Shown piece by piece: positions 46,418 to 63,425 of a stretch of DNA of 64,000 nucleotides. The notes below the pieces were generated by a model. That model searched no databases. It saw nothing but the letters and a program-made list of their open reading frames with translations, and was not told where the DNA came from. Source of the DNA: Thermodesulfobacteriota bacterium (GTDB taxonomy: Bacteria; Desulfobacterota; Desulfobacteria; Desulfobacterales; C00003060); NCBI GenBank assembly GCA_034189385.1, contig JAXHVD010000002.1, forward strand, positions 128,001-192,000, given 5' to 3'. Position numbers and translations under genes: made by a program. Each line of letters begins with the position of its first letter. Position 1 is the first letter of the stretch.

Positions 46418-46810
46418 ATGGACTACATGATCAAGAGGAAAGAGAGCGTTGAACGAAGGAAAGACAAACGGTTTGAGGTCCAGGAGGGAACCTTTGCGGT
46501 GTTCACACCCCATTTCAGCAATTGGGGGCAAGTGATAGATATAAGCAGGCATGGACTTGCCTTTCGCTATACGGGTAAGGGCCTGCCGAAAAACATGCCA
46601 TCTCAGCTAGGCATATCCATAGCCGATATTGGCTTTTATCTGGGCCGGATGCCATTCAAGGTCATTTCGGATTTTGAAATAGCGAGCGCGGGCTCTCACC
46701 GCTTGTCAATGGCAAGGCAATGTGGGGTGGAATTTGGCGAGCTGACTCCTGGTCAGATATCGCAGTTGGAATTTATTATCTCGAACTACACTCAAACTCA
46801 GGGCTATTGA
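46418..46810 (+). CDS. PilZ domain protein
   Basis: ERRKDKRF (RxxxR), DISRHG (DxSxxG), CGVEF. Confidence 0.85.
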   Translation: MDYMIKRKESVERRKDKRFEVQEGTFAVFTPHFSNWGQVIDISRHGLAFRYTGKGLPKNMPSQLGISIADIGFYLGRMPFKVISDFEIASAGSHRLSMARQCGVEFGELTPGQISQLEFIISNYTQTQGY

Positions 46811-47252
46811 TCTTTTCCATGATCAGCTTGATCACTTCCGGTATTTTGCTTTCGATTTCAGGGCTTAACTCCATCGCTGGGGTGCGAACATCCTTGGGCA
46901 CAACGCCGATAAACAAGGTTTCCGGACACTTGCCACTGGCCTTAATGTCGTCCAGCGTTTCAATGAGATGATATTTGCCTACGTCGGTCACTCCATTGAC
47001 AGTTAATGGAACCTCCCCGGGGCTCAGGCACACAATGGTGCCAGGTTCGGCATCTATTTGAAATACATCGACGACGATCATTCTATCCATGCCGTCAATG
47101 ACGTGTGGAAACTCTGAGGCGGACTCGCCCACTTCTAGACATTCCACGTTTTCAGGAAGATCCATTTGCTCCAAGGCCTTGGACACGTGATAGCCGAACC
47201 CTGTGTCGCAAGTATAGGGATAGCCGGTGCACAAAATCAAAGCACGTTTCAT
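46776..47252 (-). CDS. Divergent hydrogenase maturation protease-like protein
   Basis: HybD/HycI fold pattern (D.G.G..V, IVVD, EPGTI, IGVVP, ELSPEI) with an altered N-terminal motif. Confidence 0.75.
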   Translation of the reverse strand: MKRALILCTGYPYTCDTGFGYHVSKALEQMDLPENVECLEVGESASEFPHVIDGMDRMIVVDVFQIDAEPGTIVCLSPGEVPLTVNGVTDVGKYHLIETLDDIKASGKCPETLFIGVVPKDVRTPAMELSPEIESKIPEVIKLIMEKINSPEFECSSR

Positions 47253-47458: not shown

Positions 47459-48469
47459 ATGGGAATAGATAAGATTCTTCTGGATCACGGAAGTGGAGGA
47501 AAAGCATCTCATAGCCTGATTGCTGAACTCTTGATCCCCCAGTTCGAAAACCCGATCCTTGCCGCACTGAACGACGGCGCCATCTTTGACATTGAAGCAA
47601 AGCGGCTTGCCTTTTCCACCGATACCTATGTGGTCGATCCGCTATTCTTTCCTGGTGGAAACATTGGAGACCTTGCCGTTAACGGCACCGTCAATGATCT
47701 TGCCATGTGCGGGGCAACCCCCCTTTATCTGAGTGTGGGTCTGATCATTGAAGAGGGCTTTTCCACGACGGACCTGAAAAAGATACTCGAAACAATGAAA
47801 CAAGCGGCAGCCAAGGCCCATGTCCTGATTGTCACCGGCGATACAAAGGTGGTGCCGAGGGGGGTAGCAGACAAGATATTCATTAACACCTCGGGAGTTG
47901 GAGTGATCCCAGAGGAGACAACGATTTCCGGGCACAACGCCCGTCCTGGGGATAAGGTTATCATCAGCGGTACTATTGCGGACCATGGTATTACCGTCCT
48001 GACCCAAAGAGAAGGGATGGCCTTTGAGTCCCCGATCCAAAGCGATACTGCGCCTCTAAACCACCTGGTACGGGAAATGATGGCTTCAAGTGACCAGATT
48101 CACGCCTTAAGAGATCCGACCAGAGGGGGGGTCGGAACCTCGCTGAACGAGATTGCCATCCAGTCCAAGGTGGGAATAGAGATCTACGAGGAAGCCGTCC
48201 CCATGCGAGAAGAGGTTTCAGGAGTATGCGAACTTCTGGGCTTCGATCCCCTCTATATTGCCAATGAAGGAAAACTCCTGTGCTTTGTGGCACCGGACGA
48301 CGCTGAAAAGGTGTTGGCAACGATGAGAGCCAACGAATTCGGAAAAGAAGCCAGTATCATCGGCAGGGTCGTTGCCGATTCTCCGGCCAAGGTCTCTATG
48401 AAAACCCCTATTGGGGGGATCCGAATTGTGGACATGCTTGCGGGAGAACAACTCCCCCGTATTTGCTGA
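47459..48469 (+). CDS. hypE: Hydrogenase maturation protein HypE
   Basis: HGSGG, GTVNDLAM, GDTKVV, RDPTRGG, C-terminal LPRIC. Confidence 0.97.
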   Translation: MGIDKILLDHGSGGKASHSLIAELLIPQFENPILAALNDGAIFDIEAKRLAFSTDTYVVDPLFFPGGNIGDLAVNGTVNDLAMCGATPLYLSVGLIIEEGFSTTDLKKILETMKQAAAKAHVLIVTGDTKVVPRGVADKIFINTSGVGVIPEETTISGHNARPGDKVIISGTIADHGITVLTQREGMAFESPIQSDTAPLNHLVREMMASSDQIHALRDPTRGGVGTSLNEIAIQSKVGIEIYEEAVPMREEVSGVCELLGFDPLYIANEGKLLCFVAPDDAEKVLATMRANEFGKEASIIGRVVADSPAKVSMKTPIGGIRIVDMLAGEQLPRIC

Positions 48470-48699: not shown

Positions 48700-49041
48700 A
48701 TGCACGAGTTATCGATTACGCAGGGTGTATTGCAAATAGTCCTTGACGAGGCCACCAAGCATTCGATTTCTAAAGTGAGCCTGGTGAAATTGAAGATAGG
48801 AGAGCTCTCGGGCATCGAGACGTCCTCTCTTACCTTCTGCTTTGAACTTCTGACTAAAGATACTCTGGTAGAGGGGGCAGATCTTGAAATAGATGTGGTC
48901 CCTATCAAACGAAAATGCCCCAACTGTCATGAGGTTTTTGAGTGTGATCATTTTTCATTTGTTTGCCCAGCCTGTTCAAGTGTCAACACAGAGCTGATCA
49001 CTGGCAGAGAGCTTTATGTGGAACACATTGAAGGCGAGTAA
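48700..49041 (+). CDS. hypA: Hydrogenase nickel incorporation protein HypA
   Basis: MHE N-terminus, CPNC...CPAC, GREL. Confidence 0.95.
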   Translation: MHELSITQGVLQIVLDEATKHSISKVSLVKLKIGELSGIETSSLTFCFELLTKDTLVEGADLEIDVVPIKRKCPNCHEVFECDHFSFVCPACSSVNTELITGRELYVEHIEGE

Positions 49042-49325: not shown

Positions 49326-49997
49326 ATGAAGATACCGGTGATAAGAAAAATCTTGGAGGCGAATGATCATATAGCGGAAGAAAACCGAAAGATATTCGCT
49401 GAAAACGGGATTTTCGTTTTGAATCTCATGAGTTCGCCGGGAGCAGGTAAAACATCGCTTCTTGAAAGGACGATAGACGCCCTTCATAAGGATTTGCGAA
49501 TAGGGGTGATAGAGGGAGACGTCCAGACCAGCATTGATGCAAAGAAGATTTCAAAAAAGGGTGTTCCTACGGTCCAGATCAACACCGATGAGGCCTGTCA
49601 TTTAGATGGAAATATGATTAGGGCCACCTTGGATTCCTTTGATCTTAAATCCCTTGATCTTTTGATCATAGAAAATGTTGGCAATTTGGTCTGTCCTGCT
49701 GAATTTGATACAGGAGAAAACCATAAGGTCGTGGTCCTGAGTATCCCCGAGGGAGATGACAAGCCAGCGAAGTACCCTCTCATGTTTCATGAATCAAAGG
49801 TCCTACTGATCAACAAGATAGATCTGGTGCCTTATGTCGACTGTAGCATCAATAAGATTAAGAAATCTGCCCTGAAGATCAATCCTGACCTTGAAATATT
49901 TGAAGTCTCCTGTAAGACTCAGGAAGGCCTTTCCCAATGGTATGAGTGGATAAAGAAAAAGGTTCATGCATACACTCGAAGAAAGTCCAAGAGGTAG
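49326..49997 (+). CDS. hypB: Hydrogenase nickel incorporation GTPase HypB
   Basis: SSPGAGKT, IEGD, CHLD, ENVGNLVCPA, EGDDKP. Confidence 0.97.
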   Translation: MKIPVIRKILEANDHIAEENRKIFAENGIFVLNLMSSPGAGKTSLLERTIDALHKDLRIGVIEGDVQTSIDAKKISKKGVPTVQINTDEACHLDGNMIRATLDSFDLKSLDLLIIENVGNLVCPAEFDTGENHKVVVLSIPEGDDKPAKYPLMFHESKVLLINKIDLVPYVDCSINKIKKSALKINPDLEIFEVSCKTQEGLSQWYEWIKKKVHAYTRRKSKR

Positions 49998-52290
49998 AGC
50001 CAAGGCCACGATTCAAGGCATTGTGCAGGGTGTGGGCTTTAGGCCATTCGTATACCAACTTGCCCAGGAAAGACAATTCAAAGGGTACGTAGCCAACACG
50101 GCTTTTGGCGTCGATCTTGAGGTCGAAGGGAATCTGGCGGCTATTGAAGATTTTCTTCGAGACATTGAGGCGAAGAAGCCACCTCTGGCAGAGATTACCC
50201 TGTTTGAAACTGTTTTCCTTCCTTTGAAATCCTACCAAGAGTTTACCATTGAAGAGAGTAGATCTGATACAGAGCGTTCGGTCTTGATATCACCTGATAC
50301 AAGCATTTGTGACGACTGCCTCAGTGAATTGCTCGATCCGTCAGATAGGCGCTACAGATATCCTTTTATCAACTGCACGAACTGTGGACCCAGGTATACC
50401 ATCATTAAAGACATTCCCTATGACAGGGATAAGACCACCATGAAAGTCTTTAAGATGTGCAAGGCCTGCAATAAAGAGTACCGTGATCCCTTGAACCGAA
50501 GATTCCATGCCCAACCCAATGCATGCTGGGATTGTGGCCCCAGGGTCCGTTTATACGATCACAAGAGAGACGTCATCCCTTGCGATGACCCTATTAAGGA
50601 GACCGTCAGACTGCTCAAAGAGGGTCATATACTGGCCATCAAAGGGTTAGGCGGATTTCACCTTGCAGTGGATGCGACCCGTGACGAGGCAGTAGCGCGC
50701 TTGCGGCGAAGGAAGCATAGGGAAGAGAAACCCTTTGCCGTCATGTCTAGAGACATGGAGTCCGTTAGAAGATATGCCCATGTGACCAGGGACGAAGAGG
50801 AACTCCTCACATCGTCAAGAAGGCCTATTGTATTGTTGAGGAAAAAAGAGGGCCACGAACTCTCTCAAGGGGTATCACCGAGAAACAAGAACGTTGGGGT
50901 GATGCTTCCCTATACGCCCCTTCACTATCTGATCTTTGAGGGGGATTTTCTGGCATTGGTGATGACAAGCGGCAACATGACCGAGGAGCCCATTGTCATC
51001 GACAATGACGATGCCTTTGACAGGCTTTCATCCATTGCAGACTATGTGCTCGTACACAACAGAGACATATGTTTGAGGAGTGACGACTCTGTTTTAAGGG
51101 TTGTCGACGGTGTGGCCAGACAGATGAGGAGGTCCCGCGGTTATGTGCCTGTCCCTGTATTTCTGAAATGGGAGGCAGAGCCTGTCTTGGCTTGTGGGGC
51201 AGATCTAAAAAACACCATATGCCTCACCAAGGGGAATTGTGCCTTTTTAAGCCAACACGTAGGCGACGTGGAAAACCTGGAGACCTTAGATTTCCTAAAA
51301 TTGACTGTAGGCCATCTCAAGCGGATTCTAGAGATTGATCCTAGGATCATTGCCTATGATCTCCATCCGGGGTACCACAGTACCCATTTTGCCCTGGAGC
51401 AAAAGGATATCCAGCTCATCGGGGTTCAACATCATCATGCCCACATTGCGAGCTGCATGGCGGAAAATGGCGTGGATGAAACGGTGATAGGACTGTCCCT
51501 AGACGGCACCGGCTATGGTCTGGATGGCAGGATTTGGGGCGGAGAGGTGTTGCTGTGTAATCTGCGTGACTTCGAGAGGGTGTGCCACTTTGATGATGTC
51601 CCCATGCCCGGAGGCACCGCTGCCATCAAGGAGCCGTGGCGCATGGCGATCAGTTATCTTTATCATGCCTATGACGGGCAATTCATGGATCTTGAACTGG
51701 ATTTCTTGAAGTCATTGGATGAAAAGGAGGTCAAGGTCATTCTGAAGATGATAGAACACGGGATTAACTCTCCCTTCACATCGAGCCTGGGCAGGCTTTT
51801 TGATGGCATTGCCGCACTGATTGGTCTGAGACAGAGGGTCAAGTATGAAGGACAGGCTGCTATGGAATTGGAGATGGCGATTGAGGAGAACAGAGATTCT
51901 CTCTACCCTTACGAAATCAGCGGCCAAGACCCGAGTATGATCTTCAGGCATGAACCGATCATCAAGGGGGTGGTAAGAGATCTCCAAAGAGGATTGTCTC
52001 AGGGTAGCATCAGCGCCAAGTTTCACTATACCTTATTAGAGATGTTAAGTGAGATATGTATCAGAATCAGAGAAAAGAGGAGTCTGAACGCCGTTGCCTT
52101 AAGCGGCGGGGTCTTTCAAAATGCCTTTCTCCTCGAGGGTCTGACCAAGAGGCTCCACGATAAAGGTTTTGAAGTCTATACCCATTCTAAGGTGCCCACG
52201 AACGACGGCGGAATCTCCTTGGGCCAGGCCGTGATTGCCGATGCCCTGTCTAAAGGGGAGCCCATCTCTTCTGAAAAACTGGGTTCATGA
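49966..52290 (+). CDS. hypF: Carbamoyltransferase HypF
   Basis: GIVQGVGFRP, CTNCGPRY zinc fingers, KGLGGFHL, QHHHAH, NDGGISLGQ. Confidence 0.97.
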   Translation: MHTLEESPRGRAKATIQGIVQGVGFRPFVYQLAQERQFKGYVANTAFGVDLEVEGNLAAIEDFLRDIEAKKPPLAEITLFETVFLPLKSYQEFTIEESRSDTERSVLISPDTSICDDCLSELLDPSDRRYRYPFINCTNCGPRYTIIKDIPYDRDKTTMKVFKMCKACNKEYRDPLNRRFHAQPNACWDCGPRVRLYDHKRDVIPCDDPIKETVRLLKEGHILAIKGLGGFHLAVDATRDEAVARLRRRKHREEKPFAVMSRDMESVRRYAHVTRDEEELLTSSRRPIVLLRKKEGHELSQGVSPRNKNVGVMLPYTPLHYLIFEGDFLALVMTSGNMTEEPIVIDNDDAFDRLSSIADYVLVHNRDICLRSDDSVLRVVDGVARQMRRSRGYVPVPVFLKWEAEPVLACGADLKNTICLTKGNCAFLSQHVGDVENLETLDFLKLTVGHLKRILEIDPRIIAYDLHPGYHSTHFALEQKDIQLIGVQHHHAHIASCMAENGVDETVIGLSLDGTGYGLDGRIWGGEVLLCNLRDFERVCHFDDVPMPGGTAAIKEPWRMAISYLYHAYDGQFMDLELDFLKSLDEKEVKVILKMIEHGINSPFTSSLGRLFDGIAALIGLRQRVKYEGQAAMELEMAIEENRDSLYPYEISGQDPSMIFRHEPIIKGVVRDLQRGLSQGSISAKFHYTLLEMLSEICIRIREKRSLNAVALSGGVFQNAFLLEGLTKRLHDKGFEVYTHSKVPTNDGGISLGQAVIADALSKGEPISSEKLGS

Positions 52291-52327: not shown

Positions 52328-53608
52328 TTACTCACTCCTCTGCAGGGTCAGGCCATACTCCTTTTCTACACTGGCTGCCATCACCACGGCCTTGTCTATT
52401 TCATCATAGGCAAAGGTGTCGTTTTTCAATACCAGGTGGGGTGCTTTGTCGTCGAACTGCAAGCCAAACTTGTCGGCCTTTGAGTAAAGCTCGGTCCCTG
52501 GGAGGACATGGAGAATACTAAAGACGATCGTTGTGGGTTTGAGTTCCATCATGGCCTTGACGGACCTGCAAAACCTGAAGAAATTGTCCCCTGGAAGCCC
52601 GATAATGAGATCGGTCAATACCTCAATGCCGGCATCAAGTAAGAGTGTGATACCCCGGTTGAACTTTTCCTTTCGGTAGTAACGATTCACATTGTTTAGG
52701 GTGGTGGCGTTCACCGTTTGCGGGCCCGTTTCCACGCTCAAGACATTTGCCTCTTTCAATAGCTGAATCGTTTCTTCATCAATCAGCTCAGTCATGACCT
52801 CCACCGTGCGCAAGCCGGCACCAAAGCTATTGGCATGAGAAAACATCTGGGCCAACCTCCTGAGCCTATTCTTCTTCAGGTTAAACACCGAATCGACGAC
52901 GTGGAAACTGCGGATGTGAGGGTTGCTCATGATCAATTCGATTTCTTGCTTTACCCGTTCCTCAGGGAAAAACCTGAGCCTTGGAAAGTTCTTTCCTTCA
53001 AAGCAAAAGGCGCACTGATAAGGGCATCCGCGGAATGTCTCAAGATAGGTCACCTCATCTGTGGGTGTGAGAATTCCAGTCAAGTAAGGTGATGGGATAT
53101 CCCCCAGATCGTCTATAAGGGGCCTGTCTTCGGTGCTCACGACCCGGCCGTTTTTCCGATAGGTAATCCCCTTAATAGATGCCAGTGAATCGCCCCCGCC
53201 CACGTATGACCGCACCAACTCCTGAAAGGTAACCTCCCCTTCTCCGCGGACAATGACGTCCACTGCTGGATGCCCCATCATGTATTTCTCTGCTGCCGGT
53301 CCAACCTCAGGTCCACCGAAAATGATCTTCATTTCCGGATAGAGCTGCTTCAATAATCTGGAAAGATCCAGAATCTTATCCATATTCCAGCAATAACAGG
53401 AAAACCCCACGACATCGGGCTTTTCTTTGGAAAGATAGCAAAGGGCCTGTCGCACGTCGTGGATCTCTGCGTCAAAATCCACGATCTGAATGAGGGCGCC
53501 ACGGCGAATCAAGGGATCTTTTTCTGCGTACGCTTTCAGATATCCGGCCGCCAGAGAAAAATGATTGGACCAGTTGAATCCCATTAAGGTGACCTTAACC
53601 TTGTCCAT
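52328..53608 (-). CDS. B12-binding radical SAM protein (class B methyltransferase-like)
   Basis: N-terminal cobalamin domain (VGFSCYCWN, GGPEV, GEGE); RGCPYQCAFC; LIIGLPGD. Confidence 0.9.
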   Translation of the reverse strand: MDKVKVTLMGFNWSNHFSLAAGYLKAYAEKDPLIRRGALIQIVDFDAEIHDVRQALCYLSKEKPDVVGFSCYCWNMDKILDLSRLLKQLYPEMKIIFGGPEVGPAAEKYMMGHPAVDVIVRGEGEVTFQELVRSYVGGGDSLASIKGITYRKNGRVVSTEDRPLIDDLGDIPSPYLTGILTPTDEVTYLETFRGCPYQCAFCFEGKNFPRLRFFPEERVKQEIELIMSNPHIRSFHVVDSVFNLKKNRLRRLAQMFSHANSFGAGLRTVEVMTELIDEETIQLLKEANVLSVETGPQTVNATTLNNVNRYYRKEKFNRGITLLLDAGIEVLTDLIIGLPGDNFFRFCRSVKAMMELKPTTIVFSILHVLPGTELYSKADKFGLQFDDKAPHLVLKNDTFAYDEIDKAVVMAASVEKEYGLTLQRSE

Positions 53609-54488
53609 TGCCCCCTGTCCCACCCTCATTTAGCTCCATGAGGATCCTCATATCCTCTATATGCCTGCTCTTTGGAACGGGCATGAGGTGATCGTGTCCA
53701 AAGTGATCCAAATAGCCCCTGTCCATGCCCGGACAGACGTCGTCATAGACGCATCTCTTACAATCTTCGGATTTCTTGTACGCGCCGTAAGGCGTGCCAT
53801 ATATTTCTGACACGTGGTGTTCCATGCCTGTCATGGCGCAGAGAGGAATTCCTCTTGTCACGATCCATACCCTGTTCAAGATAGCCCCGCTGATGGCATT
53901 CTGAATGTAGGGCAGTGCCTTGGACATCTCCAGCCCACTATCGTCATAGGAGAGGATGATACGATCCACTTGATAGGGAATGAAGCTCAAGGCGATGGGG
54001 CCAACATCTTCATAATTGTGCCTTGATATGGGTATTCTCAAGCTGATGAAGGCGCTGAAAGGGGCTTGATCAAGGGTGGTGATGGTGCGCAGGTTGATGA
54101 CCCCCTGCACGGTTTCTTGCAGACTCCCACTCACCTGAGTCACATCATCGTGGATATCGGGCCGATAGTGATGGACCTTTATTTCAAAGAAGTAACATCC
54201 AGACTCTACGGTTTTGACGGCAGTATGGCCATCGGCAAAGGCCCTGGCGTTGGTCAGAAGCTTGATCCTTTTAAAACCCTGATCACGAGCAGTATCCAAG
54301 ATACTGAAAAAATCTCTCCTAAGAGTGGGCTCTCCCCCGCAGAGTTCTAAGCTGTCCACGCCGTCGTTTCGGGTCAACTGGGCCGCTATTTCCGAAAGCT
54401 CAGGATCATCGGGCCTGTTGCTCTTGCGACAGTAAAGGCAGCTATTGTTACACTGACTGCCCACATAGACCCTTTTGTATATCAGCAC
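53595..54488 (-). CDS. Radical SAM protein (HxsC-like, with C-terminal Cys cluster)
   Basis: CNNSCLYC, GGEPT, TNAR, IPLC, CKRCVYDDVCPG. Confidence 0.85.
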   Translation of the reverse strand: MLIYKRVYVGSQCNNSCLYCRKSNRPDDPELSEIAAQLTRNDGVDSLELCGGEPTLRRDFFSILDTARDQGFKRIKLLTNARAFADGHTAVKTVESGCYFFEIKVHHYRPDIHDDVTQVSGSLQETVQGVINLRTITTLDQAPFSAFISLRIPISRHNYEDVGPIALSFIPYQVDRIILSYDDSGLEMSKALPYIQNAISGAILNRVWIVTRGIPLCAMTGMEHHVSEIYGTPYGAYKKSEDCKRCVYDDVCPGMDRGYLDHFGHDHLMPVPKSRHIEDMRILMELNEGGTGGNGQG

Positions 54489-55915: not shown

Positions 55916-57004
55916 TTAGAACTGGCTGTACTTGTAATAGGCAGCACAGGTCCCCTCACTGGATACCATGCAGGGACCTACGGGATTTTCAGGCGTGCAA
56001 ACAGTTTGGAAGAGCTTGCATTCCTTGGGTGTCTTAACACCACGGAGGATGTCGCCGCATTTGCACCCGGGCGGCTCAGGGCAGTCCGGAACCTCCAGGT
56101 CGAACAGGGCATCTGCATCAAAGCTCCTATAGGCCTCTCGCAGGGCAAGTCCACTCTTCGGAATGACTCCAAGACCTCGCCACGGTGCGTCACAAGGCTC
56201 AAAGACCCGGAACAGGGTTTTCATGGCATTCACATTGCCCTCAGGTGCTACTGCCCGTCGGTATTGAATTTCCACTCGGGCTTCGCCCGCTTCTATTTGG
56301 CTTACCAGCATAGAGATTCCCTGCAAGATGTCCAGAGGTTCAAAGCCCACAACAACACAGGGGGTATGATAGTTGGCGGCCACCAGCTCATAGGAGGCCG
56401 TTCCAATAACCGTAGTCACATGCCCGGGGCAGATAAACCCGCTGACATCCAGCTCCCCTCCCGAAAGGAGGGCATCCATGGCCGGCGGAAGGAGTTTGTG
56501 AGACGAGAGGACCGAAAAGTTCTTGATCCCTTCCACTTCGGCCGCCACTACAGCAGCAGCAATGGTGGGAGCCGTTGTCTCAAATCCCACTCCGAGAAAT
56601 ACCACTTTTTTTTCGGGGTGTTGCCGGGCAATCTCCAGGGCATCCATCGTCGAATAGACCATGCGCACGTCAGCACCCAAACTCTTTTCATGTTGCAATG
56701 ACGACTTAGACCCAGGCACCCGGATCATGTCCCCGAAGGTCGTCACAATCACACCCGGTATCTGCGCGAGTTTGAGCGCTTTATCGATGTCGCGGGCAGC
56801 GGTGACGCACACCGGACAACCAGGGCCTGAGATCAGAGCCACGTGTTCAGGCAGGACCTCACGGATACCGTATTTGAAGATGGCCACCGTGTGCGTGCCG
56901 CAAACTTCCATGAACCGGGCCGGCTTTTGGGACGTGGCCTTAATACGGTCCGCCATCTTGAGGGCCACAGAGGCATCCCGGTATTCACTCAGGTATTTCA
57001 TCAA
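55916..57004 (-). CDS. hypD: Hydrogenase maturation protein HypD
   Basis: EVCGTH, GPGCPVC, GFETT, PGHV, GPCMVSSEGTC. Confidence 0.97.
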   Translation of the reverse strand: MMKYLSEYRDASVALKMADRIKATSQKPARFMEVCGTHTVAIFKYGIREVLPEHVALISGPGCPVCVTAARDIDKALKLAQIPGVIVTTFGDMIRVPGSKSSLQHEKSLGADVRMVYSTMDALEIARQHPEKKVVFLGVGFETTAPTIAAAVVAAEVEGIKNFSVLSSHKLLPPAMDALLSGGELDVSGFICPGHVTTVIGTASYELVAANYHTPCVVVGFEPLDILQGISMLVSQIEAGEARVEIQYRRAVAPEGNVNAMKTLFRVFEPCDAPWRGLGVIPKSGLALREAYRSFDADALFDLEVPDCPEPPGCKCGDILRGVKTPKECKLFQTVCTPENPVGPCMVSSEGTCAAYYKYSQF

Positions 57005-57218
57005 TCACCCCCATCTCTTTCCAAAGCTCCAGGGTGATTCGAGCTTCCTCGGGATCAATCCTATGAAGAGCAAAACCAGCATGAATGATCACATAGTCTC
57101 CAACCTCGGGCCTTTCATCCACAATGTCCAGACGGGCATCTTTCGTGACACCAGCCAGTTCGGCGCGGATGGTGTCCCCCTCCACTTCAATCACTTTCAT
57201 CGGTGCTGCCACGCACAT
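56985..57218 (-). CDS. hypC: Hydrogenase chaperone HypC
   Basis: MCVAAP N-terminus; GDYVIIHAGFA. Confidence 0.95.
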   Translation of the reverse strand: MCVAAPMKVIEVEGDTIRAELAGVTKDARLDIVDERPEVGDYVIIHAGFALHRIDPEEARITLELWKEMGVIDEIPE

Positions 57219-57689: not shown

Positions 57690-58367
57690 CGGTCATGCTC
57701 TGAACCCTAGGTTGTATCGTGTGATCTTCGGTCATGATCCGAACGTATCTTGAGCTCTTTGAACCAACTCTGCCGACCCGTTTACAGGAGTTCTGGGGTG
57801 TCTTGTATGGCATCAGGCAATACCAGGGAGTACGTATTTCAAATTGAAAACATACCTAGAGAAGCAAAAAAGTTTTGGTAAGACAGGTTGCAACAGGAGT
57901 CATGTAGGATGAGGGAATGGGAAATTGTACAAAATAACGCACTGTTATCAATAGAAAAATCATGGCGGGCCCCGGGCTCGCGGCACGTCCCGGTGTGGGG
58001 TTGCTATTCTGTGTTCTTTGAGATTAGGATCAAATTTGATTGGAAATAGAATCGGTGCGAATCCATTTTGCTCACTCCGTGAGCATGTTAGCAGCGTCTG
58101 CTTAACTCTGGTAGGTCACGAAAAGTCCGGCCTCGTGGCCCTACAAAAGTCAGCGACTCGCAACGCTTCAGTCGAGCAGGCGTCTTAGTCTTAAAAGGGT
58201 AGCATGTTTTTCGCAATTGGCCGTGGCTTTTGTGCTGTTGCTATTTTCTTAATGAAAGGGGGTGAAACACCAAGAGATGGAAAGAGCCTTTCCTGTGTGC
58301 CCTTGTGCACAAAGGAAGGACCCTTGTAACCTTTAGACATAGTTTGACAAAGGGGGGAGACACAACA

Positions 58368-59603
58368 ATGAATATTACCAGAAGGCAATTTTTGCACTAC
58401 TGCACTGCCTCTGCCGCCGCCCTGGGCCTCAGCCAGATGGATCTCTTGAAGCTGGAAAAGGCCTTGGCGACACCGCAGACAGGCTGCGGCAGCCCGACAC
58501 CTTCGGTGATCTGGATGACTGGCCAGGCATGCTCCGGATGCCAGACATCGCTGCTGAACCGGGTGGTGGATACTGGTGGCACGGGCTACTATGATGCAGA
58601 TTTGTTGAATGCCCTTACCGGCGGCGCATTTCCTCAAGGGGTCCCCAGCGATCCTATTCCGGAATTGAACGTGGTAAACGACGTGGCGGATCTGCTGGTG
58701 GGCGATGCCGTTGGCACCCTGGTGCCGGCCATCACCCCAAGGGGCCTCACGTGGGCGCCATTTTCGAATGGTTACGTCACGCTGGAGTGGCTGACCACGG
58801 TGAACGCCGGCGCCGGCGACATTAATGTCCAGCACATCAAGAACATCGTCAATACCGGCGGTTTTTTTCTGTTGCTGGACGGCTCGATTCCTGTGTTAGA
58901 TGAGAATTTCTGTCTCGTCTTTGATAACGAGGTGAATGACGGTGTGGGAGGGACCAAGATCATTTCCAGCCTTCCGCTCGGGCCGATTACCCTGTCTGAT
59001 GCCCTCAGGTGGATGATACCACAGGCAGCTGCCTGCATCAGCGTGGGCACATGTTCTGCCTTTGGAGGCATCCCGTCCGGCAAGAAGAACAAGACGGGCG
59101 CCATAGGGCTTCAGCAATTCATGAGCGATAATTCGCTTTCCAAGCCGTTGATCAATGTGCCCGGCTGTCCGCCTCATCCGGACTGGATCGTCTATCCGGT
59201 GGCACAGATCCTGATTCACGGCCTGCCGTCCGTACTGGCTCCAGGTTGGCTGGACGCCTGGGGCAGGCCAGCAGCGACTTTCGGCAATCAGCCCTTCTGC
59301 TCAGCGGCAGGTTCTTCCTGTGCGAACCACCCGTCCATGGGTGCGGGCTTTGCCCAACACCTGGGTGACGACGGTTGCCAGGGGAACATGGGCTGTAAGG
59401 GGCCCATCACCTTTGGGGATTGCCCTTCCCGTCAGAAGAACGTGTTCGACGACGGCACAGTGAACAACTGGTGTTCTGCCGGCTCCCGAGGGCCCAATAT
59501 CGCCCAGGCCCGGCACGTTTGCCAGAGTTGTATTCAACCGGACTTTCCGGATCCACCAACATCCCCATTCTACGAGCCGGCATCCGGCGCTAGCCCGGTT
59601 TAA
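58368..59603 (+). CDS. [NiFe(Se)] hydrogenase small subunit, Tat-exported
   Basis: TRRQFL Tat motif; CSGC, GTC, PGCPPHP; GCKGP...DC...NWC...CQSC..PDFPD; GGGGGAG RBS before ATG 58368. Confidence 0.93.
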   Translation: MNITRRQFLHYCTASAAALGLSQMDLLKLEKALATPQTGCGSPTPSVIWMTGQACSGCQTSLLNRVVDTGGTGYYDADLLNALTGGAFPQGVPSDPIPELNVVNDVADLLVGDAVGTLVPAITPRGLTWAPFSNGYVTLEWLTTVNAGAGDINVQHIKNIVNTGGFFLLLDGSIPVLDENFCLVFDNEVNDGVGGTKIISSLPLGPITLSDALRWMIPQAAACISVGTCSAFGGIPSGKKNKTGAIGLQQFMSDNSLSKPLINVPGCPPHPDWIVYPVAQILIHGLPSVLAPGWLDAWGRPAATFGNQPFCSAAGSSCANHPSMGAGFAQHLGDDGCQGNMGCKGPITFGDCPSRQKNVFDDGTVNNWCSAGSRGPNIAQARHVCQSCIQPDFPDPPTSPFYEPASGASPV

Positions 59604-59618
59604 AGGAGGTGAAATAGC

Positions 59619-61958
59619 ATGGCAACACTAAGAATAGCACCTGTTAATAGAATCGAAGGACATATGGATGTCTCGGCCACGACCGATGTGAACAAGGTCG
59701 TCACTCACGTAGACAACGAGGTAGTCATGTTCCGCGGCCTTGAAAATGTCATGGTCAAGCGGGACCCGCGGGACGCACCCATTATCACGCCACGTACCTG
59801 AGGCGTCTGACCGATTACACATGGCTCGGCGAGCCATAAAGCGGTTGGAGAGGCCTATGGGTTCAAGGTGGACTACTCTCACTCAAACACTGGTGGCTAT
59901 CCAGGCGGACCTGCCGATTTTTGGGCAAACAACGCCAGCGGAACGCCCACCATCAACAAACTGTATGAGGATGTTCCGGCCAATGGCGTATTGCTCAGAA
60001 ACCTGGCCATGGCGTCCAACTACCTCATGTCCCACATTCTGCATTTCTACCATCTGGTAGCCTTGGATTATGTGGATGTAAACGGCACGGGGCTGATCCC
60101 GAAAGGGTTCCTCTGCCCGAACTATGACAGTAACTACTACGCCAGGGGGATCGACCCTGTCTTGCAGACAGGCGGTCTCGGAGCGCCGGCGTACACGGTC
60201 AACAATGCCCCTGTGGCGAACCCAAACGTTCCCGCAGGCGTTGCCGGCGATCTCACCCCCTACCTTGCAGGACAGTATGTGCGCGCCTTAAAGGCGCGCC
60301 GGATGGCCCATCAGCTCGGCGCCATCTTTGCGGGCAAGATGCCCCATGCCTCCTGTTTCACACCGGGGTGCGTAACGACTAAGTCGTACGATCCCACGCC
60401 GGGCGGCTCTGACGCTGCCGTGGTGAACAAGGTTCACGAGCTACTCTACGGTGGGCCCGGATTTGACGCGACCGCCCCGGGTGCACTCACCATGTCCAAC
60501 CCCCATCCGGAAAGCCTCATGGGCTTTATCGGAAAGCCCAGCGATTTCTGGAATTGGGCTGCGGACGCCAGTGGATCCACAGGCGGTTTGGGCTTTGGCT
60601 TTGCGCCCGAGTTTCTCCCGCCATGGGCAGCCGCTGGTGCGGCAACCGCAGGACCACTGGCCGGCCTCCTTGGGTCAGGGCCGTGGACACACGGCGGCAC
60701 CTTCATGTTTGATACGGTGGCCGCTGCCCACTGCTTCCCCGAGTACTTCTGGATCGGTTCCGGCTACGGCCGTTACCTGGCCTGGGGGATCTTTGAGGGG
60801 GCAGCCCCAGGGCACCCGGACGAAAGGCTCCTGACCAGGGGTCGGGTCCACACGCCGCTGGCGCCCAATCCTCCGGGGACACCCTACGCATATGACTACA
60901 AGCATCATGGTGCGGACCACTTGAAGGCCAAGGAGTTTACCACAAACTCCTGGTACTATGATCCCGCGGGGATCGACTACGGGCGGCACATGTGGAAGGG
61001 CAAGACCAAGCCGAGGTCCCGTGCGACCAAGCCCAGTGCCTACACCTTTGCCAAGACCCCGCGCTACAAAAACAATGCGAGCACGGCTGCCTGGGAGATT
61101 GCCGATCATCCCAACGCCGCCTATCTTCCCTACGAGGTGGGACCGCTTGCCAGGATGATATCCAATGCCTCTCTGCTGACCACACCGGGCGGCCCAGCCA
61201 CAGCAGGCGAAGTGGTTGCCGTGGACAGCGGGGCCTTTGGGTGTTACTACCCGGGTATCCTCGCAGATGTGGATGCCGTTCTGGCTCCCGCAGGTGTCGG
61301 AGGACCATCGCCCATTGGCGTGTTCCCGGGCAGGGGAGTCAACATGACAGCGCACATCACCTTTCTGGCCGGTGCGGGCGTTTTCTACCTGCCGCCAAAC
61401 GCCTTCTCACCACAGGTATTGGGGAACGGTTTCCACAGCGACTACATGGGCGGTGCCACGCTGGACAGGATCGCGGCCAGGACCCTGGAGACGTACTACG
61501 TGGGGGCGCAGATGCTCAACTGGTTTAACGCCCTTAACCCAGCCGCCCAGTCCAACAAGACCCTGTTCTTTGACTATAGCGGCTTCACGAACAAGACAGC
61601 GCCCAAGAAGGCGAAAGGCGCAGGCCTGACTGAGGCCCCAAGGGGCGCTCTCGGGCACTGGATCAAGATCGGCAAGCCTGACGGGACTTGGAAGGGCAAG
61701 ACGGAAAGGTACCAGATCATCACGCCCACGGCCTGGAACATCAGCCCCAAGGATGCCGTTAATGCGACAGAGAAGACCCTGGGTCTGATGGGTCCCATTG
61801 AAAGGTGCATCTGGGGTACCCCTGTGGTGGCCGAATCAGAGCCGATCGAGGTGTTGAGGATTATCCATTCCTTTGACCCGTGCTGTGCCTGTACGGTCCA
61901 TCTGATGAACCCGAAAAAGGAGAAGGTGGCCGAGGTCACACTCGAAGCCCTCATGTAG
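59619..61958 (+). CDS. [NiFeSe]-type hydrogenase large subunit with two in-frame UGA (predicted Sec) in the N-terminal motif; 779 aa
   Basis: RIEGH, FRGLE, RDPRDA, then R-T-TGA-G-V-TGA-P-I-T-H; frame runs on into the 59868 ORF; EAPRGALGHW, DPCCACTVH and a C-terminal extension; AAGGAGG RBS. Confidence 0.9.
59802..59855 (+). promoter_or_regulatory. Putative bacterial SECIS element
   Basis: Perfect ATGGCTC-ggc-GAGCCAT stem starting 10 nt after the second UGA, with lower stems ccgat/gttgg and ggcgtct/agaggcc. Confidence 0.75.
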
Positions 61959-62001
61959 GAATCCATTCCAACTGGAAGGGAGTTCCTTATAACCTTAAAA
62001 G

Positions 62002-62030
62002 AAAAGGGGCCATTTTATGGCCCCTTTTCT
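62002..62030. terminator. Intrinsic (bidirectional) terminator after the large subunit
   Basis: aaaaggggccat-ttt-atggcccctttt. Confidence 0.85.
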
Positions 62031-62164
62031 ATTTGATCTCACAAAGCTGGCGCGACCCGCCCGTTGAGTCCTCGCAAGCCATATCGCCATACCCATTGGA
62101 GACAGCCTGGTGTCCCAAGGAATGACTTACATAATTGGCGAGGTCGCCAAGAACGCCGGGGGGG

Positions 62165-62312
62165 AATATCGTAAATCCGAAATTCGAAAATCGAAGCACG
62201 AAACAAATTCGAATGACCAGAATTCCAATGAACGAAAAACTTCACAAACGTTTGAGGACATGATAATATTTAAATTTCTGTCATTGTTTCGGATTTCGTG
62301 CTTCGAGTTTAA
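62165..62312. repeat. Inverted heptamer arrays (AAT.CGA / TCG.ATT type)
   Basis: aaatccgaaattcgaaaatcgaagcacgaaac ... gtttcggatttcgtgcttcgagttt. Confidence 0.6.
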
Positions 62313-62447
62313 TGTCTTGATGACTCTCCGCAGATCATGGATTACTTCCACGATACTGTTATGACGATGCGTGCGTTTTGGCGGGGAAACTGGTATACTA
62401 TTAATTTTATACTTGGAACGAATCCCCGATGAACAAGGAGGCAATGA

Positions 62448-62918
62448 GTGGAGAGTGATAAGCCTATACTGGTTTTGGGCGTGGGCAACCTGCTGCTGAA
62501 AGACGAAGGGGTGGGCGTCCACGTGGCCCGAAAACTCATGGAGATGGACCTGCCGTCCCATGTGGAGGTCCTGGATGGCGGCACAGGCGGCTTTGATCTG
62601 CTGGATGAGCTCGAAGGGCGCAAAAAGGTGATCGTTGTGGATACGGCGCAGGCGGGAAAGCCTGCCGGGACCATGTATCGCATGACCACAGAGGACATTG
62701 AAAAGACGGAAAAGGCCCGCATCTCTCTCCATGAGATTGACATGACCGATCTGTTGAAGCTGGCCGACCTGTTCAAGATTGAAAAGCCAGAGATCGTGAT
62801 CATCGGCATTGAACCCAAGGACATGGAGAGCGCCAGCACGGAGCTTTCTCCGGAGATCGAGGCCCTCATTCCCAAGGTGATCGACGTTGTGCTCAAGGAA
62901 ATAGGGGTAGATGAGTAG
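62448..62918 (+). CDS. Hydrogenase maturation endopeptidase (HybD/HyaD family), canonical
   Basis: GVGNLLLKDEGVG, DGGT, IVVD, SLHE; AAGGAGG RBS. Confidence 0.93.
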   Translation: MESDKPILVLGVGNLLLKDEGVGVHVARKLMEMDLPSHVEVLDGGTGGFDLLDELEGRKKVIVVDTAQAGKPAGTMYRMTTEDIEKTEKARISLHEIDMTDLLKLADLFKIEKPEIVIIGIEPKDMESASTELSPEIEALIPKVIDVVLKEIGVDE

Positions 62919-62920
62919 CA

Positions 62921-63425
62921 CAAGTTAGCGCCTCACGGGTTGAAAAGAGGCGCGCCCCCTTATCAACCGTTAGAAATAACACCTAAAAGTGTGCTGGGGT
63001 TGCTAGAAAACGGAAGAACCCTGGTTTGAACCTTTCTGATGCAATGGGAGCCTCGGGAGTATGAAATCCGCTTCTCTTCGGCCTCCAATGCCTTTAGTAG
63101 CTGTGCGAAAATCGATGAGATCGCAAAAAGCACATTTTGCTCGCTCCGTGAGCCTTTTGGGCGCACCCGTAATGTTCGGCTAAAATGCTAAAACTCTCCG
63201 CCGCGGCGGATCAAACAGTTAGCATTTCTTAACGCCAAACATCCCAAGTGCTCTTCTCCCAAAATGCTCAATGTCGTTCGCAAAAGACTTTTTACGAGTT
63301 CATCAAAGATTGGAGGTAGGAATGGCTGTAGGCCTTCGTTCAGCGAATTTCCCCATCCCTCTTTTGCCAAATCCGGGGGGTACAAGTGTTGACAGACCTA
63401 CTATGAGTGGAAACGGGGGGTGGGA
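62921..63425. mobile_element. MITE family B copy, interrupted by a nested family A' element
   Basis: Left TIR caagttagcgcctcacgggttga; body matches about 37170-37446. Confidence 0.8.
63112..63306 (-). mobile_element. Family A' element nested in family B
   Basis: Termini tcgatgagatcgcaaaaag / ctttttacgagttcatcaa; absent from the 37 kb family B copy. Confidence 0.75.

Follow-up and report, generated by a model that had tools for sequence, protein, structure and literature searches.

Two in-frame UGA codons at the N-terminal nickel ligands of a predicted periplasmic Group-1 [NiFe] hydrogenase from Desulfobacterales

Hydrogenase genes and the two in-frame UGA codons

We analysed a 64,000-nucleotide (nt) stretch of contig JAXHVD010000002.1 (positions 128,001 to 192,000 of the forward strand; hereafter the window) from a bacterium of the order Desulfobacterales, whose genome (G000) is available as 4.13 Mb in 64 contigs and is 90% complete. 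Within this window adjacent genes encode the small and large subunits of a predicted [NiFe] hydrogenase, and the large-subunit gene contains two in-frame UGA codons at the positions of the two cysteines (Cys) of its N-terminal nickel-binding motif (L1), the C-terminal motif (L2) being composed entirely of Cys. The features at the centre of the analysis are listed below, with selenocysteine abbreviated as Sec (U in motifs) and selenocysteine insertion sequence as SECIS.

58368..59603, + strand: hydrogenase small subunit (Pfam Oxidored_q6, 5.5e-14; NiFe_hyd_SSU_C, 3.8e-06)
59619..61958, + strand: large subunit of the hydrogenase, a frame of 779 codons that includes two in-frame UGA (Pfam NiFeSe_Hases, 1.2e-83)
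59799..59801, + strand: codon 61, the first of the two UGA, which falls on the terminal Ni-ligand Cys of L1
59808..59810, + strand: codon 64, the second of the two UGA, which falls on the Ni-Fe bridging Cys of L1
59801..59856, + strand: SECIS-type structure, an apical hairpin with internal loop and lower stems reaching back to the UGA codons
61875..61901, + strand: L2 motif DPCCACTVH, all Cys (D753-H761), with TGC and no Sec at the canonical [NiFeSe] position
61902..61955, + strand: 18-residue C-terminal extension, preceded by the motif His at which aligned Protein Data Bank (PDB) chains end

The large-subunit frame (59619-61958) comprises 779 codons followed by a TAG stop, and the TGA triplets at 59799-59801 and 59808-59810 are its only internal stops. 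Open reading frame (ORF) prediction splits it into a 60-amino-acid (aa) ORF (59619-59801) and a 696-aa ORF (59868-61958) that share one frame (249 = 83 x 3 bases apart). When the frame is read through, L1 becomes RDPRDAPIITPRT-U-GV-U-PITHGS, numbered R59-T-U61-G-V-U64-P-I-T-H68, and in alignments to PDB chains both TGA codons coincide with the two Cys of RxCGxC in solved Group-1 large subunits. L1 and L2 both align with the motifs of 3myr_B, L1 being complete only with UGA read as Sec or Cys. The large-subunit start is preceded by a Shine-Dalgarno sequence (AAAGGAGGTG). TGA serves as an ordinary stop elsewhere in the window, ending hypE, hypF, hypC and one response regulator gene and terminating 10 of the 30 ORFs of at least 250 aa. 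These results bear out three statements made in a preliminary description of this DNA, namely that the two TGA are the sole stops in a shared frame and fall on both L1 Cys, that L2 (DPCCACTVH) is all Cys, and that TGA has not been globally reassigned.

The TGA codons were compared with sequencing runs in the form of assembled Logan contigs, not raw reads. A contig from the probable source run spans 58818-59860 at a depth of 42 with 0 differences from the window, and among the matches listed none for an independent DNA run or two RNA runs shows a difference at 59799-59810. The earlier concern over an assembly error is answered at the level of contigs from the probable source run and an independent run. 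Contigs from RNA libraries, at 88-99% identity, cover parts of the large-subunit gene and are concentrated on the bin holding L1 and the hairpin.

The small subunit probably starts at ATG 58368, which is M22 of a GTG-started ORF (58305-59603), and carries at its N-terminus a twin-arginine signal (MNITRRQFLHYC) reading MNITRRQFL; at its C-terminus it has the Fe-S domain of Group 1. Its closest PDB match is the Desulfovibrio vulgaris [NiFeSe] small subunit 2wpn_A (3.5e-50, with the signal peptides aligned) and the best standard [NiFe] small subunit reaches only 2.1e-24, although the score against the NCBIfam model for NiFeSe small subunits (NF045520) is 198.3 bits against a cut-off of 470. The enzyme is accordingly predicted to be exported by the twin-arginine translocation (Tat) pathway and to be periplasmic.

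The whole large subunit matches several Group-1 subgroups about equally well (approximately 1e-47 to 1e-48, the best at 6e-48 in the PDB). The 55 best listed PDB chains belong to Group 1 or 2a, Group 3 chains align only over residues 1-85, and Group 4 chains are absent among the best 60 of 64 matches (E <= 1e-5). In Pfam only PF00374 was matched, and no membrane-complex genes adjoin the hydrogenase genes. The first 260 aa are nearest to D. vulgaris [NiFeSe] 6rtp_B (2.6e-30 vs 1e-22 for standard [NiFe] enzymes), and the L1, L2, RIEGH and PRGALGHW motifs align with those of solved Group-1 enzymes. Residue S138 in 'MSHILHFYH', invariant across an eight-row orthologue alignment, aligns to the Ser of the D. 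vulgaris [NiFeSe] sequence 'QSHILHFYH', where A. vinosum has Asp; we read it as an active-site canopy position from this alignment, and an Asp-to-Ser canopy change is given as a mark of [NiFeSe] enzymes by Evans et al. (PNAS 2021; PMC8020662). Against NCBIfam models the large subunit scores 323 bits with NF033181 (cut-off 600) and 235.9 bits with the HysA model NF045518 (cut-off 780), and both subunits are oversized through insertions. Because of these sub-threshold scores and insertions we place the enzyme, on sequence comparison, as a divergent Group-1 branch beside the Group 1a [NiFeSe] Hys enzymes, below the family cut-offs and with no subgroup assigned. The C-terminal extension is of the kind cleaved by a maturation protease, and would probably be processed. 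A predicted structure of the read-through protein computed from the eight-row alignment was unusable (mean predicted local distance difference test score 34.6, predicted template modelling score 0.41).

Conservation, downstream hairpin and selenocysteine machinery

With the read-through protein as query, a search of 61 genomes, that of the window and those of 60 relatives, identified homologues with two TGA in 8 same-genus Desulfobacterales genomes, at 40-75% identity. The gene occurs in 8 of the 37 species genomes of the genus and, counting only genomes with a completeness of at least 90%, in 6 of 15. Each of the eight orthologues forms a single intact frame of 660-857 codons, interrupted by exactly two TGA at the L1 Cys positions, with a Shine-Dalgarno sequence and an entirely Cys L2. 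They fall into clade A (RT-U-GV-U-PITH), represented by five species with 66-70% identity to the window protein, and clade B (RI-U-GV-U-LVSH), represented by three species (L018-L020) with 40-41% identity; the two-TGA pattern is also present in three metagenome contigs of the window's lineage. Codons flanking the TGA vary synonymously between species (CGT/CGC/CGG/CGA, GGC/GGT, CCG/CCT) and the TGA themselves are invariant, the first being as strictly kept as the second in 17/17 UxxU sequences. Across nine orthologue pairs the ratio of nonsynonymous to synonymous substitution rates (dN/dS) is 0.136-0.207, with dS of 0.6-1.8, and the large-subunit gene is under purifying selection that is not relaxed. 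The paralogues L046, L051 and L052 carry TGY/TGY at L1.

Directly past the second UGA the mRNA can form a 7-bp apical hairpin (AUGGCUC / GAGCCAU; stems 59821-59827 and 59831-59837) with the loop GGC at 59828-59830. The 62-nt fold has a minimum free energy of -25.4 kcal/mol (z -3.16) and the apical hairpin alone gives z -3.76, with 0/200 shuffles equally good in either case. Measured to the U of each codon, the distance of the loop Gs is 21-22 nt for the second UGA and 30-31 nt for the first. The GGC loop agrees with the criterion for a SECIS-like hairpin, a G at apical-loop position 1 or 2, stated by Takano, Inoue, Aono, Ochi and Mihara (Front Microbiol, September 2026; PMC13582414). In a codon alignment of the five clade A species 79 of 366 amino-acid-invariant degenerate columns (21.6%) are codon-invariant, and the longest codon-invariant run in the whole gene consists of the seven hairpin codons ACA CAT GGC TCG GCG AGC CAT, the next longest being three. 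The three metagenome relatives share the same 18 hairpin bases. At the hairpin site no significant fold was obtained for either Cys/Cys paralogue, L046 or L052 (z -0.15 and -1.20).

Two other UxxU/CxxU lineages have a 6-bp hairpin at a similar distance, with a loop G approximately 28 nt from the second UGA. Four of its six pairs have changed on both sides, 95.2% of cells are paired and the covariation score is 0.683, values reached by 0/500 shuffles, with slid controls pairing at 36-48%. In clade B the three sequences are identical over nine codons past the second TGA, which indicates constraint but leaves no covariation to count. A hand-drawn clade B hairpin (UUGGC-GGCC-GCCAA) was rejected, as it is not the minimum-energy fold. 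The minimum-energy fold there contains a different hairpin (CUAGUC / loop AGCCAUG / GAUUGG) whose loop lies approximately 20 nt from the first UGA; this alternative overlaps and excludes the second-UGA hairpin, which would be compatible with two hairpins used in turn.

To describe the wider distribution of the motif we considered 80 loci from species genomes and 80 from metagenomes. UxxU occurs in 8 of the 80 species-genome loci, of which six are the same Desulfobacterales sequences as the orthologues above (not counted twice) and two are from Nitrospirota (L056 and L057, the latter on a complete Thermodesulfovibrionales chromosome). Seven of the 80 metagenome loci carry UxxU, three belonging to the window's lineage and four (L149, L162, L166 and L201) to another enzyme. 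The enzyme of this third lineage (RDAW..QRI-U-GV-U-TTVH ... DPCMACAVH, 569-598 aa) is of the classical Group-1 type, with the A. vinosum uptake hydrogenase 3myr_B as its closest match (3.5e-216); a small subunit with a Tat signal is encoded upstream, and compensatory changes are seen in the hairpin downstream. CxxU is found in one Thermodesulfovibrionales locus (L054) and, as a single TGA at the bridging L1 Cys (RSCGV-U-TY[TI]H) with all-Cys L2, in 7 of the 22 non-UxxU loci from the 61-genome search (L023, L025, L028, L030, L032, L033 and L034, from the same-order genomes G037, G046, G047, G054, G059, G040 and G039), where the large subunits are of ordinary Group-1 type and approximately 550 aa long. 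The loci thus comprise 8 CxxU and 0 UxxC. Canonical [NiFeSe] large subunits with a C-terminal DP-U-IACSVH were observed at the loci L065, L070 and L072 from metagenome-assembled genomes of Candidatus Desulfofervidaceae, of which L065 scores 704 bits with the HysA model (below the cut-off of 780) and 666 bits with NF033181 (above the cut-off of 600).

We placed 91 large subunits, sampled by similarity to the query, in a quick LG+G4 tree drawn with midpoint rooting. A Desulfobacterales clade (8 UxxU, 1 CxxC) joins a Nitrospirota clade (2 UxxU, 1 CxxU, 2 CxxC) with a Shimodaira-Hasegawa-like approximate likelihood ratio (SH-aLRT) of 96, the join of the two Desulfobacterales clades being flagged as a meeting of long branches. 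The Nitrospirota relatives L051, L052, L054, L056 and L057 combine UxxU, CxxU and CxxC within one tight clade. Six of the same-order CxxU sequences were placed, five of which cluster and one of which pairs with a CxxC sequence. As the tree is a quick one and contains a long-branch join, we make no claim on the direction or number of Sec gains. UxxU and CxxC copies occur together in two genomes (L014 with L046, and L057 with L052, the latter pair on one complete chromosome), an arrangement that recalls selenium-dependent isoenzyme pairs.

The source genome encodes the selenocysteine machinery. Its selA scores 612 bits, its selB 370 and its selD 389, each exceeding the curated cut-off, and there is a single tRNA-Sec of 98 nt with anticodon UCA and discriminator G; selD has an in-frame TGA of its own (Sec-type). 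Takano et al. (PMC13582414) recognise the tRNA-ReC that may bring Cys to UGA by a length of 80 nt or more, discriminator U and either UCA or GCA as anticodon. The source genome, in which the sole tRNA-Cys is an ordinary one of 75 nt, gave no tRNA-ReC-like gene, and neither did four congeners with the UxxU gene (Rfam tRNA-Sec hits, E <= 0.01), each of which has one canonical tRNA-Sec with discriminator G. The next-best Rfam tRNA-Sec hits in the congeners proved to be ordinary tRNA-Trp, and the lower ones inspected were Ser or Leu tRNAs. The complete Thermodesulfovibrionales chromosome with a UxxU copy (L057) also yielded no tRNA-ReC-like gene at E <= 1e-6.

Maturation genes and neighbouring cytochromes

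Genes for hydrogenase maturation flank the structural genes on both sides.

47459-48469, + strand: hypE (family profile match)
48700-49041, + strand: hypA (family profile match)
49326-49997, + strand: hypB (family profile match)
49966-52290, + strand: hypF (family profile match)
55916-57004, - strand: hypD, divergent from the hydrogenase genes
56985-57218, - strand: hypC, divergent from the hydrogenase genes
62000..62030, + strand: terminator-like hairpin of 14 pairs with a T-rich tail, 42 bases past the large-subunit stop
62448..62918, + strand: HycI/HybD-type maturation endopeptidase (106.6 bits; 1.1e-30)

A HycI/HybD-type protease gene is also found downstream of the large subunit in L045, L047, L048 and L053. 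The antisense ORF at 62127-62921 (- strand), which overlies the protease gene on the + strand and has no family match, was set aside as an artefact. A second HycI-type protease gene (65 bits) adjoins hypE at 46776-47252 (- strand). Between hypF and hypD, at 52328-54488 (- strand), are two radical-SAM genes, one with a B12-binding domain, followed by small ORFs without a family match. The source genome also encodes a second hydrogenase (C56:167534-168474), a 521-aa all-Cys large subunit with its own protease.

Past the window end (G000:C12:192810-201921; L135:2810-9987) we observed genes for a 976-aa protein with 13 CxxCH motifs and a 792-aa protein with 7 CxxCH motifs, together with a SurA-like peptidyl-prolyl isomerase and TatA (in a stretch that includes 72514-73921 on the window's scale). 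A further protein past the window end, for which TatC would be a guess, shares 29% identity with an ORF located at the edge of L043. In L043, L044, L045, L047 and L053 the small-subunit gene is immediately preceded by a gene for a homologue of the 792-aa cytochrome. Of the six further Desulfobacterales UxxU loci with flanking sequence five show this arrangement, and the sixth has the homologue nearby; it was not found next to L046, the Cys paralogue. We regard this multihaem cytochrome as a candidate electron acceptor of the hydrogenase.

Decoding of the UGA codons and comparison with known hydrogenases

We favour the reading that the locus encodes a functional Tat-exported Group-1 [NiFe] hydrogenase in which both L1 UGA codons are read as Sec through SelB and a single hairpin, and put its probability at roughly 0.8. 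In such a scheme SelD would make selenophosphate, SelA would convert Ser-tRNA(Sec), and SelB would bring Sec-tRNA(Sec) to the hairpin with its GG-starting loop. Given loop Gs at 21-22 nt and 30-31 nt from the two UGA, one SECIS most likely serves both codons and would decode them successively, inserting Sec rather than Cys at each. With ligand geometry taken from homology to solved Group-1 enzymes, the mature site would be Ni(Se-Sec61)(mu-Se-Sec64)(S-Cys755)(mu-S-Cys758)Fe, the first of its two selenolates being terminal and the second bridging. That both L1 ligands are Sec, as the preliminary description had proposed, gains support from the conservation, the hairpin and the sel genes (selA, selB, selC and selD are all present, as it had asked to be confirmed), and stays a prediction from sequence. 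Sec in L1 also appears chemically feasible by analogy with the engineered C76U and C79U variants of Escherichia coli Hyd-1, which are active at 3% and 13% of native, respectively (PMC8020662).

A number of points weigh against this reading. Sec insertion at both codons is predicted from sequence, and the sequencing-run support for the TGA codons comes from assembled contigs. Transcription of the large-subunit gene is not shown by the RNA-library contigs, which may stem from DNA carry-over or from relatives. To our knowledge, no experiment has demonstrated that one SECIS can efficiently decode a pair of UGA separated by 9 nt, and the spacing between UGA and hairpin is tight in E. coli. The 62-nt fold of clade B is no better than its shuffles (z -0.05). 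The engineered L1 Sec variants of Hyd-1 are less active and less O2-tolerant than the native enzyme, being almost inactive at 10% O2 with a lowered apparent KM(H2) (PMC8020662), which leaves the selective advantage of Sec in L1 unexplained. The remaining points concern tRNA-ReC. With the source genome 90% complete and 42 tRNA genes found, such a gene could be absent from the assembly; in two of the three Nitrospirota genomes with UxxU/CxxU relatives a Sec-like tRNA-Cys(GCA) of 94-97 nt with discriminator U accompanies the canonical tRNA-Sec (tRNA loci L222 and L223); and in PMC13582414 tRNA-ReC is reported to be enriched in Group 4 UxxU genomes, at approximately 56%, and named as a limit of sequence-based calls.

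These tRNAs are the basis for an alternative in which the UGA codons are recoded through SelB and the same hairpin but one or both are read as Cys by tRNA-ReC/SelC*, giving an all-Cys or single-Sec enzyme. For the two Nitrospirota genomes with a tRNA-ReC-like gene a Cys reading is a live possibility, and for the window enzyme we consider it quite unlikely: the specialised tRNA envisaged in the preliminary description was found neither in the source genome nor in the four congeners, the L057 chromosome likewise lacks one at the threshold given above, and Cys insertion offers no reason for the retention of TGA over TGY across dS > 1 in eight species when the TGY paralogue L046 exists. Unlikely, too, is that only the second UGA is efficiently decoded as Sec, the first being suppressed by another tRNA or terminating translation, so that a mixed or low-yield enzyme results and the double UGA acts in part as a selenium-dependent expression gate. 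The loop at +21/22 from the second UGA, close to the geometry of E. coli fdhF, is 9 nt further from the first, and Cys/Cys paralogues are kept beside UxxU copies (L046/L014; L052/L057) as for selenium-dependent isoenzymes. CxxU moreover outnumbers UxxC by 27 to 4 in Group 4 (PMC13582414) and by 8 to 0 in our loci. Poor decoding of the first UGA is nonetheless hard to reconcile with a codon invariant in all 17 UxxU sequences and specifying an essential Ni ligand, at which residues other than Cys or Sec should inactivate the enzyme. Bacterial SECIS predictors use a range of 16-37 nt, within which the +30/31 distance of the first UGA falls.

Gene callers split the frame into 60-aa and 696-aa ORFs, as would be expected of a pseudogene or of an assembly or sequencing error with two nonsense changes in a decaying gene, an explanation to which we attach next to no weight. 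The same two TGA recur in eight species genomes and three metagenome contigs, there are no further stops or frameshifts, the source-run contig is identical, and re-initiation at 59868 would remove the entire L1 motif. Since TGA is kept in the eight species genomes at dN/dS of 0.14-0.21, the large-subunit gene is, as far as sequence data go, neither a pseudogene nor a product of sequence error; the view of the preliminary description that two nonsense mutations are improbable is upheld, the homologues it had proposed to examine being TGA/TGA in 8/8 orthologues and selection not being relaxed.

Returning to the reading of both UGA as Sec, we think it probable, if somewhat less assured than Sec decoding itself, that the findings join into one picture: a soluble two-subunit periplasmic hydrogenase with a natural di-selenolate Ni site, in which, within this branch beside the classical [NiFeSe] enzymes, selenium has in effect moved from the C-terminal to the N-terminal ligand pair and a single SECIS decodes two UGA 9 nt apart. 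Such enzymes would have arisen or spread in at least three Group-1 lineages (the oversized Desulfobacterales, Nitrospirota and A. vinosum-like forms), with the Cys/Cys paralogues as selenium-independent back-ups.

[NiFeSe] hydrogenases are among the best biological H2-producing catalysts, and what the chalcogen contributes at the individual Ni ligand positions has so far been addressed only by engineered single substitutions, as described in PMC8020662. If both L1 positions, including the one that bridges Ni and Fe, do carry Sec in a natural enzyme, this would represent new active-site chemistry in which redox tuning, reactions with O2 and proton transfer could be measured. Periplasmic heterodimers have repeatedly been purified, crystallised and studied on electrodes and are more tractable than the Group 4 membrane complexes. 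The locus also raises a question about translation, namely whether one bacterial SECIS can act on two UGA three codons apart. As gene callers split UxxU frames, surveys of hydrogenase diversity undercount such genes.

The nearest precedent for the motif is in Group 4, where Takano et al. (PMC13582414) reported 47 sequences with N-terminal Sec, 16 of them UxxU, on the basis of sequence analysis alone. The preliminary description did not know the active-site form from natural enzymes, which does not stand for the motif itself in view of these in silico predictions. By the account of Takano et al., Sec variants were otherwise known only from Groups 1 and 3, with Sec in the C-terminal motif and with two Group 1 and one Group 3 CxxU sequences as exceptions (Baltazar et al. 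2011, as cited in PMC13582414), and the available part of a 2026 review of prokaryotic selenoproteins has hydrogenase subunits only with UxxC or CxxU motifs. We found no report of UxxU in a Group-1 enzyme in the full-text literature, the supplements of PMC13582414 apart. UxxU, before now predicted only for Group 4, would thus extend to a predicted periplasmic Group-1 enzyme.

The window enzyme resembles the Hys hydrogenases of D. vulgaris Hildenborough and Desulfomicrobium baculatum (2wpn, 6rtp, 1cc1, 4kl8) in being a Tat-exported heterodimer with Sec as a Ni ligand (both predicted here), in sharing the Ser of 'SHILHFYH' and in scoring best with Hys-related NCBIfam models. In Hys, however, a single Sec takes the place of the first Cys in the C-terminal DPUxxC, whereas the window enzyme has DPCCAC and both N-terminal ligands encoded by UGA; its large subunit is 779 aa compared with approximately 485-507 and its small subunit approximately 411 aa compared with 283-317, with several insertions. 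[quoted passage not shown] Those enzymes differ in being membrane-bound, multi-subunit and energy-converting, whereas the window enzyme is a predicted periplasmic two-subunit Group-1 hydrogenase, and their genomes frequently carry tRNA-ReC, in contrast to the source genome and its four congeners.

The CxxU variants of Groups 1 and 3 (Baltazar et al. 2011, as cited in PMC13582414) place Sec at the same bridging L1 position but have a single Sec, the terminal L1 ligand remaining Cys, in contrast to the two UGA found here. In Hyd-1 Sec at either L1 position gives an assembled, active enzyme; the variants described in the available part of PMC8020662 are single substitutions in a Group 1d enzyme obtained by UAG suppression, with no double variant among them, unlike the natural gene of the window with its two UGA.

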